From Planctomycetota bacterium (GTDB lineage: Bacteria > Planctomycetota > Planctomycetia > Gemmatales > HRBIN36), in NCBI GenBank assembly GCA_014584395.1, contig JACTMY010000006.1, positions 59,800 through 123,799 on the forward strand: a stretch of 64,000 nt of DNA. The letters run 5' to 3'. Each line of letters opens with the position of its first letter. Position 1 is the first letter of the stretch. Below the pieces are notes generated by a model that did no database searches, had not been told where the DNA came from, and saw only the letters and a list, made by a program, of their open reading frames with translations. The translations under genes were made by a program, and so were the position numbers. Shown here piece after piece: positions 6,640 through 52,559 of the stretch.

Positions 6640-7281
6640 TACCCGCGGTGTTTTATTGATCTGATCTGTTAGTAGTAGTCCAAGGTCGCTGTGGCATGAC
6701 GGGCCTGCTTCGGCAACTCTGACGAACGAGTGCCCCATGCCGAAAGAGGGCGACCAAGCACATGGGCTTCGGCGTGAACCAGCCCGGCAACCGGGAGGAC
6801 GGCACCGTCGCCGAGCGGGAGAACGGCCACGGCCAACTGCGGATGGTCCTGAGCGTCTCGTCCGGCGATTCCGGCGGCGGCATCTTCCAGGCCGATACGA
6901 ACTGGTGTCGGTGGTCTGCTGCACTAGCGGCATGTCCTGCAAGGTGTCGATGTGGGGCTGCTCGGCCGAGGTCGCACGACGCACCTGCCCCAAGCCGGCC
7001 GAAGCCGACGAGGCCTGGGTACCGGTCCCCATTCCCATCTGCAAGGACGGCAAACGCACGGACACCGGCGGCGAATGGAGGCCGCACCCGATCTCGATCC
7101 GCACCGTGAGTTCAGCCACGAAGTGAGGGCCAGCGATGCACAGCTTTCAGGACAACGCCGTGCGGACCTGGACGGTGGCCATCAACGTGGCGCTGGTCAA
7201 GCGCGTCCGGGGATTGCTCGACCTAAACTCTTCAAGCTCCTGGACGACGGGGCCAAGCCGCTAGGCGAGGCGAGCTTCTAG
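6640..7281. pseudogene. Degraded GC-rich phage-derived segment (mutually overlapping broken frames; includes a MHSFQDNAVRTWTVAINVALVKRVR fragment at 7135-7281)
   Basis: There is a sharp GC rise after the sialidase gene. No single clean frame is present: the minus-strand reading MAELTVRIEIG... changes frame mid-way. The plus-strand fragment at 7135 loses its frame after about 30 codons. Phage origin is inferred from composition and context. Confidence 0.3.
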
Positions 7282-7598
7282 CCGACCCGGACAAAGCCGA
7301 CGTGTCTTCCACTCGGCCACATCCCGACCCCTCCGAGAAATCCGCCGACCGATGCGTCATCCGGCGCGCGAACTGGAAAGCTCTTCAGTAGAGGGACACA
7401 CGCCAAGACAGCAGAGATCGCGAATTCCACCACCGACGTTCGCGCGGTTCCGGTAGCTGAACAAGGGAGGGGCCGCATCGCCGTTTGAGATCTTCCAGCG
7501 ACGCGGACAACCTGTTCGCGGACGGCATAGGTAACGGTCGGGCACTGCGCATGAGGGACATCATGAACGAACCAACTCCAGACCGGGCCGGCGCGGCG

Positions 7599-7730
7599 AT
7601 GAGCGACACCGTCGCGGACGCCTGGGCCGCGTCGATCCAGGGCGTCATCCTCCCCGGCACCGGTGGACGCGAACCGGTCAAACGCGGCCGCGTCAGCTTT
7701 CGGGACTTGCAGAAGAAGTCCCGGACGTGA
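7599..7730 (+). pseudogene. Second terminase large subunit C-terminal tail fragment
   Basis: ADAWAASIQGVILPGTGGREPVKRGRVSFRDLQKKSRT* aligns with the end of the first remnant, CAVAASIQGAVLFGTDGQAPAKRERVSLAELQRRRRR* (ending at 2173). Confidence 0.5.
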
Positions 7731-7816
7731 TCAGGGCGAACGGATCCTCTCCAACCCACCGGCTTAAGACTTTTGCGGTGAATCACGCGCGAAACGACAC
7801 GATTGATCGGCGTGTT

Positions 7817-8302
7817 TCAAGTGAGGCTTGCTGATCGCTTCCAATCCATCAATTGGCCGAGGTGATACGACTCGTGGGCTGCTAGTAGGTAGACAATGAT
7901 TCGGCCAACGCTGGGTGCGAATTGATCAAACGGGGCTGGTGGAGTCTTAGAAAAGTAGTCCTGATGCTTGGCCCGGACGACGCGTTCAACAATCTCGTGT
8001 CGACGTGTCAATCGGCTAATGAGTTCTGCCTTAGTTGCGTATCTGCTGGGGTCCGCGATTGGTACGGAACCTGGGCCGTAAAGCTCCATGTCTTGATCGC
8101 CAACATCATCACATGGCTCATCGAGCAGAGTCGTTATGAACGCTGCGGCATGGGCCACATGGCTAAGCGTCCAAGCGGGGTGATTGACCAGCCCGGCGGG
8201 TTGCGCGGTCATTGCTGATTCCGGGATGCGAGCAACCGCTTCAACGAAATCGTTGAGCGAAGCTGAATACAAGTCCAAGATCCGTTCCAAGTGGTTCATC
8301 AT
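7817..8302 (-). CDS. DinB/YfiT-like metal-dependent hydrolase family protein
   Basis: 161 aa with a DinB-like four-helix pattern (HPAWTLSHVAHAA ... AHESYHLGQL). It is the last gene of a four-gene minus-strand operon. Confidence 0.7.
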   Translation of the reverse strand: MMNHLERILDLYSASLNDFVEAVARIPESAMTAQPAGLVNHPAWTLSHVAHAAAFITTLLDEPCDDVGDQDMELYGPGSVPIADPSRYATKAELISRLTRRHEIVERVVRAKHQDYFSKTPPAPFDQFAPSVGRIIVYLLAAHESYHLGQLMDWKRSASLT

Positions 8303-48944: not shown

Positions 48945-49224
48945 GGCTCATCGACTCCCTGCCACAAGATTGCATGGATTCTGAATCCATGCCGACCTCG
49001 CCGGCAGCTATACACCAAGCCGATGAGTCTCGCAAGGCGAGCGGGCCGACCCTGTTCAATAAACCATTGAATTCAGGGAAAATAGCGAAGGTCTCTCATG
49101 GGGTCGCTTCAAGAGTAAGTCCGATTCATTTTCCATCTCAGGCGGGAAACGAGTCCATAAGATGGAAATGGTCCAGTGGAGCCTGGCGAGTGAGAGGGAG
49201 GTTTGAGAGTTGAGTCGATCCGTG

Positions 49225-49887
49225 ATGTATGAATTGCTGCTGCGCATCGCTCCCCATGCCATGGAATGGACGCTCATTCTCGCACCGGTGACGTTGTACA
49301 TCTTGTATTTGGCCATGTGGGTCAATGTCCGTAAAACGCCCAAGCTGGTCACCGGCCGCCGCAACGCCTGCCACCTATTACTGGCTGGTTCAGGCATCCT
49401 GCTGCTTGGACCGCCCACCTGGATACTGGCTTTTCTGCATCCCTATGGAGCCAAGGTTTACTGGGCGGGATACACGCTCTATGCGGCCGCGATTGCCATG
49501 CTCGCCTGGCGGTTTATTTCGCGACAAGCAAGGCGGTATCAACTCTTTCATGTCTCGCCCTTTGCCCTGCGGGATGCCCTCGAGTCCGTGCTCGCTGCCT
49601 TGAATCAACCCTACCTTGCCCAGTCCAGGCAGGTGACATGGACCGCGCGGCCATTGACCCTGGAAGTGGACATCTACCCCTTTTGGCGTTCGGCCCAGTT
49701 GCGTTTTTCCGGAACCGACGCCGCGCTGGAGAGCCAATTCATCGAACGTCTGCAGGAAGAGTTGCGGAGCATGGACCATGCCTCCATGGTGGTCCATTAT
49801 GTGTTAACCATCTGGGGAGGTCTGTTCTTGCTCTTCCACGTTTTATCGGTCGTCTTGTTCATTTGGTATTTGCAAGCCATCCCCTGA
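49225..49887 (+). CDS. Hypothetical polytopic membrane protein
   Basis: Four or five hydrophobic helices are visible. The track start is TTG at 49210; the first ATG is at 49225. I recognised no family. Confidence 0.5.
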   Translation: MYELLLRIAPHAMEWTLILAPVTLYILYLAMWVNVRKTPKLVTGRRNACHLLLAGSGILLLGPPTWILAFLHPYGAKVYWAGYTLYAAAIAMLAWRFISRQARRYQLFHVSPFALRDALESVLAALNQPYLAQSRQVTWTARPLTLEVDIYPFWRSAQLRFSGTDAALESQFIERLQEELRSMDHASMVVHYVLTIWGGLFLLFHVLSVVLFIWYLQAIP

Positions 49888-49908: not shown

Positions 49909-49939
49909 CCAAGCCCATGGGATGTTCCCATGGGCTTGG
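49909..49939. terminator. Perfect 14-bp stem hairpin between convergent genes (candidate bidirectional terminator)
   Basis: CCAAGCCCATGGGA-tgt-TCCCATGGGCTTGG lies between the stop of the 49225..49887 gene and the stop of the YTV gene. There is no clear U-tract. Confidence 0.45.
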
Positions 49940-49966: not shown

Positions 49967-51859
49967 TTACTTGCCGGGGGCCGGCATCGGGCTCGGCTCG
50001 GCGGTTTTCTCCGCCGGGGCGCTGGTCGCACAACCCTGGCAAGGCGCATCGCAGCACAGACGCTTGGCGAAGATGCGCTGCAACAGGCCGGTGCACCGCG
50101 GCTGGCACGCACAGGGATCGCAAGGCTTGCAAGGTTCGCAAGGCTGGCAGCAGGGCTTGCAGCAAGGCGTGCGGCATTCCCACACCCGTTCCTTGCGAAC
50201 GCGGCACTTGCAGACGTCTTCGCACCAGGTCACTGGCACTTTCTTGACGCACTTGACCGGCACGCATTCCGTCGTCTGATAAGGCACCTTCACGCAGAAC
50301 GTGTAGGGCACTTGCTTGGCCACGCACACCGGGACGTGCTTGGTCACCTTGACCGGCACCTGCTTGGCGACGGTGTAAGGCACGCGCGTCACGACTTCCT
50401 CTTGCGTCATCTGCACGGTCGTCACCGGAACCTGGCGGGTCACCTGCTCCTGCACGGTGCGGGTCACCGTGTAGGGGATGCGCTGGGTCACGTTTTCGGC
50501 CACCATGCGCGTCACGACGCGAGGCGGATTCTGACGGACGATCTTGGCGCCTTCGACGAACCGGGTCGAGCCGGCGCCGCCTGGTCCCGCCGTCGCGCCG
50601 CCTTCGCCGGCCGTGCTGCCGCCGCTGGCACCGGCCGCGGCCGCTTCCGTCGGATGGCCAACGCCGCGGTCATCCACGTAGGCGCCGTAGATCGTGCGGC
50701 TCGTGGTGTAGGGAATCCGTTCCACCACGTTTTCCTGAACCATGCGGGTCGTCGTGATCGGGATGTCCCGGGTCACGGTTTCCTGCACGTTGCGGACCAC
50801 GGTGACGGGCACTTTGCGCACTTCGGTCGTCGGGACCATGCGGGTCACCTTGTAAGCGACGCGTTCGGTCACGCACTCTTCCACCATGCGGGTGCAAGGC
50901 ACTTGCTCGCAAACGACCTTGGGCTTCTTGACCGTGCGGGTCTTGACCTGCGGTGGTTCCTGGCACGTGACGAACTTCCAACCGCCGCTCTTCTTGCAGG
51001 TGTGTCCCGTGCAAGGATCGGTGTAGCTGCAGCCGTCTTCATGGACAAGGCGGACGTACTTCTTGCCGGGCACGCAGTAGGTCTCGCAGCAATCTTCATA
51101 GATCGTCCGCTTGACCATCTTCATCTCGCACACGGGCTTGCTCACCTTCTTGACCACGTCCTTGTAGCACGTTTCCTCGACCGGCTTGCACACGGTCACG
51201 CAAACGTCCTTGACGATGGTCTCTTGCACCGGCTTGCAGACGACGTAGGTGCACGTTTTCGTGACCGTTTCTTGCACCGGCTTGCACACCGTCTTGCACA
51301 CTTCGCGGTAATGCGTTTCACACACCGTCTTGGGGACCATGTATTCACAAGGCGGGTCCTGGATGGTTTCCTGGACGGGCTTGCACACAGTATAGGTGCA
51401 TTCCTTGTAGTGCGTTTCCTGGACGGGCTTGCAAATGGTTTCCGTGATCGTCTTCATTTCGGTCTTGTACACGGGTTTGCAAACGATTTGCTTGCATTCC
51501 TTGTAGTGCGTTTCATGGACCGTCTTCACGCATTCCTGCTCGACGGCCTGGAACTGCACTTCATTCACGGTTTTGTAGCAGGTCCGCATCTCATCGCGAT
51601 AGCAGGTCTTGGTCACGGGTTTGTAGGTGATTTCTTCCACCCTTTGATAGCACGTATGGAATTTCTTCTCGTGCACCGTGTCGTAGACCAGGCGATAGGT
51701 GGGACGCAAACGAGCCTTGAGCGCGGACAGACCACAAGGGTCGCCGCAAGGCCCACAATTCACCGCCGACGCGCAGCCGCAATCGCCCGCCGCGGCCATG
51801 CCGTAAAACGACAAGGCGACGATGGCGGACAACAGGGGCGCGACCCAGCGCATTCTCAT
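49967..51859 (-). CDS. Secreted Cys/Pro/Val/Thr-rich repeat protein with YTV-type motifs (planctomycetal cell-wall-type protein)
   Basis: ATG is preceded by AAGGAGG, and a signal peptide is present (MRMRWVAPLLSAIVALSFYGMAAA). There are at least six CKPV[QEY]ET repeats. (I/V)PYT(V/T) motifs occur (TYTVCKP, IPYTVTRTV, VPYTVAKQV, IPYTTSRT). A Gly/Ala linker is present. The C-terminus reads CCKPCCQPCEPCKPCDPCACQPRC. Confidence 0.75.
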   Translation of the reverse strand: MRMRWVAPLLSAIVALSFYGMAAAGDCGCASAVNCGPCGDPCGLSALKARLRPTYRLVYDTVHEKKFHTCYQRVEEITYKPVTKTCYRDEMRTCYKTVNEVQFQAVEQECVKTVHETHYKECKQIVCKPVYKTEMKTITETICKPVQETHYKECTYTVCKPVQETIQDPPCEYMVPKTVCETHYREVCKTVCKPVQETVTKTCTYVVCKPVQETIVKDVCVTVCKPVEETCYKDVVKKVSKPVCEMKMVKRTIYEDCCETYCVPGKKYVRLVHEDGCSYTDPCTGHTCKKSGGWKFVTCQEPPQVKTRTVKKPKVVCEQVPCTRMVEECVTERVAYKVTRMVPTTEVRKVPVTVVRNVQETVTRDIPITTTRMVQENVVERIPYTTSRTIYGAYVDDRGVGHPTEAAAAGASGGSTAGEGGATAGPGGAGSTRFVEGAKIVRQNPPRVVTRMVAENVTQRIPYTVTRTVQEQVTRQVPVTTVQMTQEEVVTRVPYTVAKQVPVKVTKHVPVCVAKQVPYTFCVKVPYQTTECVPVKCVKKVPVTWCEDVCKCRVRKERVWECRTPCCKPCCQPCEPCKPCDPCACQPRCTGLLQRIFAKRLCCDAPCQGCATSAPAEKTAEPSPMPAPGK

Positions 51860-52208
51860 GATAATGCCTCCTTGCGTGTAACCGACGTTCGTTGACCTTC
51901 CAGTGATTCAACGTTGCCAGGCGATTCGGCCATGGGGGGAACGACTCTGCCGAAGAGTCGGTTTGGGATGCTGGCGTTGACAGGATTTCACCCCTGATCC
52001 GCCCTCCATGGCTTGCCCACGGCGATTTCCTTGCCGTGATGCTGGCTCTTTATCGTCCGCGAGCGCGGCTAGCTATCACCAGCAACCGCCAAACTCGCGC
52101 GGCTTGCTCCTCTTCCCTAGACGGTGGTAGGCGGCGTAGGGGCTATGACGATCGTCCCTAGGAGACGTCCTTTTCGGACGGTGCTTGGGATAACGTTCCT
52201 GACGGCGG

Positions 52209-52251
52209 GAAACAAACAAACGGTCGGAAGCGGGGGGGCGCTTCCGACCGT
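52209..52251 (-). terminator. Rho-independent terminator (minus strand)
   Basis: There is a 13-bp perfect stem: ACGGTCGGAAGCG-gggggg-CGCTTCCGACCGT. On the minus strand it is followed by TTGTTTGTTT. It lies about 110 nt downstream of the 65-aa ORF. Confidence 0.65.
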
Positions 52252-52361
52252 TCAGGGGGGACAGGGAGGAGGTTTCGTTCAGACTCGGTTTCTAGACAAA
52301 AGCGGAGTGATGTATCAATTGGTCCGCCTGGACGGCGGCGGTTCGATGCGCCAATCAGGTT

Positions 52362-52559
52362 TTAGTTCAAGGATGGCCAAGCTGCCCGGCGTTGCAACTT
52401 GAGGCATTGCTTGCGGCACTCTTCGATGTCCCGGAGCATGCGCTCGGTCAAATAGATCACAAAGGGAGCATCGTCCGCCGCGGACAATTCGTCGTGCGTC
52501 GAGGTCAGCTTGGTCAGCGAATCACGCATGCGAAGCAATTCAGCAATGTGTGCAGGCAT
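52362..52559 (-). CDS. Hypothetical small protein (65 aa)
   Basis: The internal ATG at 52559 is preceded by GAGGAG. The protein starts MPAHIAELLRMRDSLTKLTSTHDEL... The upstream part of the 129-aa track ORF looks non-coding. Confidence 0.4.
   Translation of the reverse strand: MPAHIAELLRMRDSLTKLTSTHDELSAADDAPFVIYLTERMLRDIEECRKQCLKLQRRAAWPSLN

Follow-up and report, generated by a model that had tools for sequence, protein, structure and literature searches.

A Cysteine-Rich YTV-Family Protein from a Gemmatales Planctomycete and a Predicted Long-Hairpin Fold for Its Repeats

A YTV-Family Gene in a Gemmatales Genome

The minus strand of a 64,000-nucleotide (nt) stretch of DNA from a Planctomycetota bacterium (GenBank assembly GCA_014584395.1, contig JACTMY010000006.1, positions 59,800-123,799 of the forward strand; hereafter the window) carries, at 49967..51859, an ATG-initiated open reading frame (ORF) for a protein of 630 amino acids (aa). 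An original prediction, written from the sequence alone and without database searches, had presented this frame as the gene of a secreted, Cys-rich repeat protein of YTV type, and the frame does exist as described. The gene is genuine, under strong constraint and monocistronic, and its product, from a Gemmatales planctomycete, adds a divergent new member to the YTV family, which is known but structurally uncharacterized. The protein is probably a Sec-exported structural component of the cell envelope of this order, with a ribbon-like fold and Cys residues that cross-link one molecule to another. The features of the locus are collected in Table 1.

Table 1. Features of the YTV-family locus, in window coordinates; strands (beta), turns and hinge are those of the predicted fold.
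Feature	Position (nt)	Strand	Residues (aa)	Remarks
Coding sequence (CDS), YTV-family protein	49967..51859	-	1-630	ATG start; stop codon 49967..49969; PF07639 match
Signal-peptide-like N-terminus	51788..51859	-	1-24	MRMR, uncharged hydrophobic core, AAA followed by GD; most hydrophobic stretch of the protein
N-terminal Cys-rich segment	51698..51787	-	25-54	5 Cys; modeled as disordered (pLDDT <50 in both models)
Beta-1	51362..51697	-	55-166	16-residue repeats of CKPVQETHYKECTYTV type; lag-16 z=10; continuous strand in both AlphaFold2 models
Turn 1 (IQDPPCEY)	51338..51361	-	167-174	Break between strands; antiparallel center at aa 170, z=4.8
Beta-2	51071..51337	-	175-263	16-residue repeats; three CKPV units
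Central turn module (VPGKK..DGCSYTDPCTGHTC..)	50951..51070	-	264-303	Antiparallel center at aa 284, z=4.4; pLDDT 70-89 around it
Beta-3	50672..50950	-	304-396	VTRxV / (I/V)PYT repeats
Hinge	50522..50671	-	397-446	GAYVD..G(V)GH..(GPG)..RFVEGA plus lineage-specific Gly/Ala insertion; pLDDT <50
Beta-4	50186..50521	-	447-558	VTRxV / VPYT repeats; Cys in C-terminal half; lag-16 z=8.6; dN/dS 0.04
Cys/Pro-rich tail	50090..50185	-	559-590	(x-P-C) triplets; length varies across the family
Conserved C-terminal motif	50030..50089	-	591-610	GLLQRIFAKRLCC(D)xxC; short helix 593-598 in one of the two AlphaFold2 models only
Pro/Ala-rich C-terminal end	49970..50029	-	611-630	Ends ..PMPAPGK; similar ..(L/M)P.(P).(K/N) ends in homologs
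Shine-Dalgarno sequence AAGGAGG	51867..51873	-		7 nt before the ATG; conserved in both orthologs (L008, L009)
Leader/promoter region	51860..52216	-		65-78% gap-free identity to L008; putative promoter
Leader blocks TGATAG and GACGATA	52073..52078 and 52051..52057	-		Separated by a 15-nt variable spacer
Upstream terminator-like hairpin	52217..52254	-		Follows the 65-aa ORF
65-aa ORF	52362..52559	-		
Post-stop hairpin	49909..49939	-		Probable terminator between convergent genes; 14 Watson-Crick pairs, 3-nt loop
225-aa hydrophobic protein	49210..49887	+		Convergent with the YTV gene
527-aa antisense ORF	50312..51895	+		Not a gene (repeat shadow)

The proposed family identity was borne out by Pfam: YTV (PF07639) matched at E=1.8e-25 with 89.1 bits, against a gathering cutoff of 21, in eight stretches. 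An NCBIfam scan gave nothing meaningful. From 5.8 billion proteins, 125 homologs were recovered, nearly all with PF07639 and every named one from Planctomycetota or Gemmata. The best relatives in general protein collections were only 39-46% identical to the 630-aa protein, and an exhaustive search of 1.84 billion cluster representatives returned 605 relatives at E<=1e-3, only 18 of them at E<=1e-30; by these searches, the family is a small one that diverges fast and is restricted to its lineage. A scan of GTDB species genomes with the single protein gave two orthologs. One (L008), from a metagenome-assembled genome (MAG) named 'Gemmatales bacterium', is 85% identical, has the gene order of the window and represents the closest genome found; the other (L009) is 66% identical. 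A scan of metagenomes by protein found no relative, and a scan for paralogs found no second YTV gene in the window.

Three traits by which YTV proteins are recognized were found: restriction to Planctomycetia, seen in the Gemmatales MAG with its shared synteny and in the names of the homologs, a high Cys content (56 Cys, or 8.9% of residues), and tandem short motifs rich in Thr, Val and Pro, here with a 16-residue period and about 24 units. The composition further includes 95 Val, 74 Thr, 55 Lys and 51 Pro. Across the family, Cys content has a median of 8.8% and ranges from 1.5 to 15.5% with the architecture kept. The protein is basic (isoelectric point [pI] 8.8, net charge +28; family median pI 8.85), and it may be speculated that this charge would favor association with anionic envelope polymers.

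YTV proteins were first seen in Rhodopirellula baltica (Hieu 2008, as cited in PMC5287468 and PMC8567305). Cys-rich members are major constituents of wall preparations of Gemmata obscuriglobus boiled in sodium dodecyl sulfate (SDS) (PMC5287468); in wall preparations of Tuwongella immobilis, YTV proteins score highest and are present only in the SDS-soluble fraction (PMC8567305). They are found in no class other than Planctomycetia (PMC12673574; the restriction is also given in PMC8567305), one member is essential in Planctopirus limnophila, and their cysteines have been suggested to regulate wall rigidity (PMC10632474). These four reports (PMC8567305, PMC5287468, PMC12673574, PMC10632474) confirm the tie between Cys-rich YTV proteins and planctomycete cell envelopes that the original prediction had given.

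The 630-aa protein has in common with the YTV wall proteins of R. baltica, G. obscuriglobus (GobsU_38067/28375/21360) and T. immobilis the hidden Markov model match, a signal-peptide-like start, high Cys content, short repeats rich in Thr, Val and Pro, and an origin within Gemmatales/Planctomycetia; with C1280_03040 of G. obscuriglobus (P0003), it shares its overall architecture at 41-44% identity. Unlike other YTV proteins, it holds a lineage-specific Gly/Ala insertion in its hinge, and unlike those detected by proteomics, it is known here from its gene sequence alone. Wall localization, known by proteomics for the homologs, would extend to this protein by analogy. Whether the planctomycete wall is made of protein, peptidoglycan or both has been debated for decades, and the lineage-specific YTV proteins, one of which is essential in Planctopirus, are the main protein candidates. 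The locus does not define a new family, but as a single-copy gene under strong constraint and with close orthologs it makes a clean example. New here are the 16-residue unit, the module map, the modeled hairpin topology with its registers, and repeat Cys that would mostly be without partners in the sheet; neither the module map nor the long-hairpin topology is described in the accessible YTV literature.

Repeat Unit and Module Map

Autocorrelation with BLOSUM scores gave, at a lag of 16 residues, z values of 10.0, 6.7 and 8.6 in three repeat blocks, far above chance, and further significant lags were found at 8, 24 and 32. The repeat unit comprises 16 residues in two 8-residue halves, with Val or Ile at every fourth position. 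Indels among orthologs respect these units: relative to the window protein, L009 is without exactly one 16-aa unit in the beta-3 block, and the tail is shifted by one 3-residue (xPC) step with respect to L008. The length of the hinge varies freely between orthologs. Six CKPV(Q/E/Y)ET units had been read originally; six CKPV units are present, at aa 127, 143, 159, 192, 208 and 224, but only five of them read CKPV(Q/E)ET, the sixth being CKPVYKT. The other motifs named at that time were found as given, namely T-C-Y-K (four occurrences of T(C/H)YK), two VTR/PYT blocks with a Gly/Ala split between them (aa ~406-430), and the Cys/Pro tail, read as CCKPCCQPCEPCKPCDPCACQPRC and found at aa 566-589. 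VTR occurs six times in all, PYT four times and YTV three times.

Constraint differs between the modules. In the comparison of the window with L008, the ratio of nonsynonymous to synonymous substitution rates (dN/dS) was 0.04 in the N- and C-terminal repeat blocks, 0.10 in the middle block, 0.07 in the central module and 0.20 in the Cys/Pro tail, and was highest, at 0.43, in the Gly/Ala hinge. Among 43 aligned homologs, the best-conserved landmarks are the non-repeat parts. The signal-peptide-like N-terminus is followed by a YRLVYDTVxEKRxHTCY start and then by the break at ..QDPP..; the central module has the family form CETYCVPG...DPCTG, within which D281 and P282 belong to the only six columns of the alignment that are near-invariant; the hinge follows the consensus GAYVD...GPGRxFxEGA; and the C-terminal motif G(L/F)LxR(L/I)F..R..C occurs in 20 of the 43. 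Pfam searches with the isolated N-terminal, central, hinge and tail modules returned nothing at E<=10, keratin-associated families included, and a low-power search of the 5.8 billion proteins with a profile of the GLLQRLF module found one 91-aa fragment only.

A signal peptide had also been claimed, and the N-terminus has the corresponding n/h/c pattern, which recurred in 34 of the 43 homologs in a crude home-made scan; the other nine include N-terminally truncated fragments. Cleavage would fall between AAA and GD, and the segment would serve as the export signal. A G(D/H/Y)(C/F)G motif follows this signal-peptide-like segment across the homologs. The annotated N-termini of P0003, P0009, P0021 and P0053 appear over-extended by about 90-170 residues, since the family-aligned signal-peptide-like start lies internally in these proteins (aa 171, 157, 88 and 128, respectively).

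Two observations concern the hinge. The L009 gene (5812..7308 and 7181..7912) is frameshifted exactly within the GC-rich DNA of the Gly/Ala hinge, which points either to a fault of assembly in low-complexity sequence or to a genuine split of the protein into two halves, with two strands in each. In some family members (P0004, P0005, P0009, P0012, P0026 and P0037), the GAYVD..GPGRxFxEGA module is doubled; by the hairpin model set out below, these proteins would have two more long strands, six in all.

Predicted Fold

AlphaFold2 (AF2) was run twice, with 43 and with 120 aligned sequences, and the topology was equal in both runs: four unbroken strands (aa 54/55-166, 175-263, 304-396 and 447-558/9) of about 90-113 residues, with the DPP turn, the CETYCVPG..DPCTG module and the GAYVD..RFVEGA hinge as connectors. 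A rise of 0.33 nm per residue would give strand lengths of 29-37 nm. The predicted local distance difference test score (pLDDT) reached 80-89 around beta-2, the central turn and beta-3, with maxima of 88-89 around the central turn. Because AF2 confidence was moderate, the topology was tested from sequence alone. In a scan for centers of antiparallel self-complementarity, made without AF2 information, the two strongest centers fell at aa 170 and 284, and the top centers of most full-length homologs examined map to one or both of these positions, which are DPP-like and FDPCTC.

The registers of the hairpins were then evaluated by charge complementarity. Register i+j=341, between beta-1 and beta-2, ranked second of 102 with 12 salt bridges against 3 repulsive pairs; register i+j=569, between beta-2 and beta-3, ranked first of 83 with 12 salt bridges and no repulsive pair; and register i+j=843, between beta-3 and beta-4, gave 7 salt bridges, likewise with no repulsive pair. 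Summed over the three, 31 opposite-charge pairs stand against 3 like-charge pairs. Complementarity of this order ranked first or second of about 100 registers and was reached by 0-2 of 2000 shuffles, and the runner-up registers were offset by exactly +/-16. At the supported registers, V:V and K/R:E rungs alternate every four residues. The models and the register analysis suggest a ribbon, approximately 30-37 nm long, of four very long antiparallel beta-strands; this long-hairpin ribbon is the best-supported fold of the YTV protein, as a prediction with independent support from its sequence.

Among solved structures, a Foldseek search of the PDB found only generic very long hairpins, at TM-scores of <=0.09 and root-mean-square deviations of tens of Angstrom. 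These are the pore stems of lysenin, aerolysin and anthrax PA and the tail knobs of phi29 and Andhra, all with two-stranded antiparallel hairpins. No PDB chain matched in sequence; a search with the YTV family profile gave 0 matches at E<=1. The pore-stem and tail-knob hairpins form barrels with a lipid-facing side, whereas the YTV protein has no apolar face.

Cysteines and a Proposed Cross-Linked Envelope Layer

At the supported registers, only one direct cross-strand Cys:Cys pair would form, C110:C231. The CKPV cysteines of beta-1 lie opposite Thr of beta-2, and those of beta-2 opposite Thr of beta-1, in alternation along a single face of the predicted ribbon. An intramolecular ladder of cysteines was considered and rejected, as no hairpin register pairs more than four Cys with Cys and the supported registers pair 0-1. 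Of 76 Cys columns in the three orthologs, 39 are conserved and the other 37 vary, mostly between Cys and Thr or Val. The fold would accordingly not depend on cysteines, most of which would be surface-exposed and open to intermolecular disulfides. Cross-linking of this kind, which the original prediction had named as plausible, fits the observation that the repeat Cys mostly face Thr and turn over fast between orthologs, and it would also fit the detergent resistance reported for YTV homologs.

The proposed mechanism begins with Sec-dependent export of the YTV protein into the cell envelope of the Gemmatales planctomycete. Its repeats would there form four continuous antiparallel strands and hence a long ribbon, one face of which would carry alternating V:V and K/R:E cross-strand rungs. 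The cysteines, not being needed for the fold, would stand out from both the ribbon and the (xPC)n tail and would link neighboring molecules by intermolecular disulfides, the outcome being an SDS-resistant protein layer that would stiffen the wall.

A number of points weigh against this reading. The AF2 models have a mean pLDDT of 61 and a predicted template modeling score of 0.24-0.25, the strand boundaries used in the register test were taken from the AF2 output, and the arrangement of the four strands as one sheet or as two hairpins would be compatible with that output. The window protein and L009 both have an even number of cysteines (56), and the central module of L009 is without four Cys of the window protein (C257, C258, C262 and C277), with other Cys nearby. 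Some local intramolecular disulfides may thus be formed, mainly in the N-terminal, central and tail segments. Finally, peptidoglycan has been reported in several planctomycetes (PMC5287468, PMC12673574), and a protein-only wall is for this reason not required.

The even counts and the apparent exchange of Cys pairs in the central module of L009, together with closely spaced Cys in the N-terminal, central and tail segments that could pair locally, would also suit a protein of the same family and location in which the cysteines mainly form intramolecular disulfides, stapling the monomer into a stable secreted or periplasmic rod without a covalent lattice. We regard this as improbable. The Cys count of L008 is odd (59), the supported registers hold a single cross-strand Cys pair with the CKPV cysteines opposite Thr, close orthologs differ at half of the Cys columns despite a dN/dS of 0.04-0.09, and homologs withstand boiling SDS (PMC5287468).

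Intermolecular cross-linking of ribbons can be extended to a bolder proposal, which is offered tentatively and is itself rather doubtful: YTV proteins would constitute an undescribed bacterial wall polymer of ~30-37-nm four-strand ribbons without a hydrophobic core, kept in register by the alternating V:V and K/R:E rungs and forming a cross-linked, redox-tunable sacculus that partly replaces peptidoglycan mechanically in Gemmatales. The ribbon would then present Cys on both faces at a 16-residue periodicity and the (xPC)n tail at one end. With a pairing code of 16-residue period, strands of different molecules could also pair in slipped registers, and such pairing combined with intermolecular disulfides would give a covalently cross-linked protein sacculus.

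Within the Planctomycetes-Verrucomicrobia-Chlamydiae (PVC) superphylum, the chlamydial proteins OmcB and OmcA are Cys-rich envelope proteins thought to rigidify the envelope by intermolecular disulfides. By analogy, the mechanism proposed for the YTV protein would be alike, but repeat type and predicted fold differ, and no relationship in sequence was detected, no Pfam family other than YTV matching the 630-aa protein. A more distant likeness was that of the tail to keratin-associated proteins (KAPs), to which the original prediction had compared it. Like mammalian high-sulfur KAPs, the tail (CCKPCCQPCEPCKPCDPC) consists of short repeats rich in Cys and Pro with a presumed role as disulfide cross-linker, and to this extent the comparison stands; it is compositional and confined to about 30 residues, and no KAP family of Pfam matched the whole protein or the tail at E<=10.

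The regularity of the short repeats, rich in Thr, Cys and Val and with Cys at fixed positions, invites a different fold, a parallel beta-solenoid with one 16-residue unit to each coil and disulfides within the coils, as in a surface adhesin or an ice- or mineral-binding protein. The repeats presumably resemble the antifreeze repeats of Tenebrio and spruce budworm, and the moderate AF2 confidence leaves room for such a fold, which is nevertheless very unlikely here. Parallel stacking at lag 16 would place 39 like-charge against 16 opposite-charge pairs, as compared with 3 against 31 in the antiparallel registers, and the Val-bearing face also holds alternating K/R and E and hence provides no apolar core face. 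Both AF2 runs show unbroken strands of ~100 residues rather than coils, and the C-terminal repeat blocks are almost without Cys. A solenoid of the insect antifreeze type was rejected on the unfavorable charges and the continuous strands.

Lastly, the 56 cysteines, with their CxC, CC and (xPC)n motifs, could be those of a thiol-rich envelope protein that buffers metals or redox state in the manner of metallothionein, the tail and the CxC/CxxC motifs binding metals; the fast evolution of Cys positions, as if only their number mattered, would be in keeping with this. There is scarcely any likelihood of such a function, given that no metallothionein or metal-binding Pfam family matched at E<=10, that family members with as little as 1.5% Cys keep the architecture, that the non-Cys repeat residues are strongly constrained (dN/dS 0.04), and that homologs are abundant in wall fractions (PMC8567305, PMC5287468).

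Coding Strand and Conservation of the Gene

Between the window and L008, dN/dS (Nei-Gojobori) was 0.09 for the sense frame, with dS at about 1.0, as against 1.4 for the antisense frame, which is free of stops. Conservation favors the minus strand, and the GC content at third codon positions (GC3) of the minus-strand frame is 0.81. The long antisense ORF, rich in His, Arg and Gly, had been set aside in the original prediction as an artefact, and rightly so: it is a by-product of the repeats, as indicated by the dN/dS values, the GC pattern and its break-up in L008. That this ORF, long and stop-free as it is, should be the real gene has next to no probability, because its dN/dS is 1.4 against 0.09, its base composition (GC1 0.81, GC3 0.56) is that of the coding frame in mirror image, it has no Pfam match, and the antisense strand of L008 is split into ORFs of 358 and 171 aa.

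The YTV gene is the best-conserved DNA of a 14-kb block syntenic between the window and L008. The exact 630-aa protein was assembled in at least 23 independent Logan contigs; the differences among these copies are all synonymous, but as the copies were retrieved by exact protein identity, this is circular and was not counted as evidence. In one Logan variant (L002), five of the nine synonymous differences lie within 46 nt (CDS 1743-1788; window about 50072..50117), in the region of the Cys/Pro tail and GLLQRIF. A small recombination or gene-conversion tract may account for this cluster, or an assembly effect in the repeats.

Flanking Signals and Neighborhood

The strong Shine-Dalgarno sequence and the 14-bp hairpin after the stop codon, both noted originally, were found, the former 7 nt before the ATG and kept in both orthologs, the latter with two G.U pairs in addition to its Watson-Crick pairs. 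The folding energy of the hairpin is -34.8 kcal/mol (z -5.1 to -5.7). It has no U-tract in the window and was not called by a terminator consensus scan; in L008 and L009, its place is taken by a different hairpin that has a U-tract. The YTV gene is taken to be monocistronic, being set off by a terminator-like hairpin on its upstream side and, where it converges with the gene downstream, by a hairpin of its own.

An untranslated region (UTR) of ~350 nt had been proposed upstream. The distance agrees, with 357 nt from the upstream terminator-like hairpin to the ATG, of which some or all may be transcribed. From the stop codon of the upstream ORF to the ATG, there are 502 nt. Approximately 400 nt upstream of the ATG are 65-78% identical to L008 without gaps, whereas the identity of other intergenic regions in the block drops to 12-58%, with many gaps. 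In the same comparison, synonymous sites approach saturation, and the leader is about as conserved as coding DNA. The two leader blocks and their spacing, TGATAG-N15-GACGATA, are invariant in the three orthologs. By its sequence, the element resembles a promoter, which would put the length of the 5' UTR at about 180 nt; a scan with the sigma-70 consensus found no promoter. A structured leader RNA was considered and is not supported, with a covariation term of -0.33 from RNAalifold on 3 sequences and a minimum free energy z of -0.35, and Rfam 15 gave no match in the leader. The sole Rfam match, ar14 at 26.3 bits and hence below its threshold of 58.8, lies over the upstream terminator hairpin and probably reflects just the terminator. 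This hairpin, which belongs to the 65-aa ORF, shows a compensatory change between the window and L008 (GCG/CGC against GTG/CAC).

The neighboring genes encode a Ser/Thr kinase, a class-III aminotransferase, a DUF4190 protein, the 65-aa ORF, a 225-aa membrane-like protein and a DUF1573 protein. As these are unrelated housekeeping or hypothetical genes, operon structure and synteny were rejected as clues to function. The gene order of the window is common to L008 and not to the more distant homologs L006 and L007. The 65-aa ORF has no Pfam match and is conserved in L008, the two sharing the C-terminus ..RRAAWPSLN. The convergent 225-aa protein likewise has no Pfam match; its identity to L008, 46-61% at the nucleotide level, is far below that of the YTV gene. 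The distant homologs L006 and L007 are likewise preceded by long intergenic regions of at least ~470 nt (7524..8001 in L006; 7535..8001, plus an internal start, in L007), and YTV genes may in general have long leader or promoter regions.

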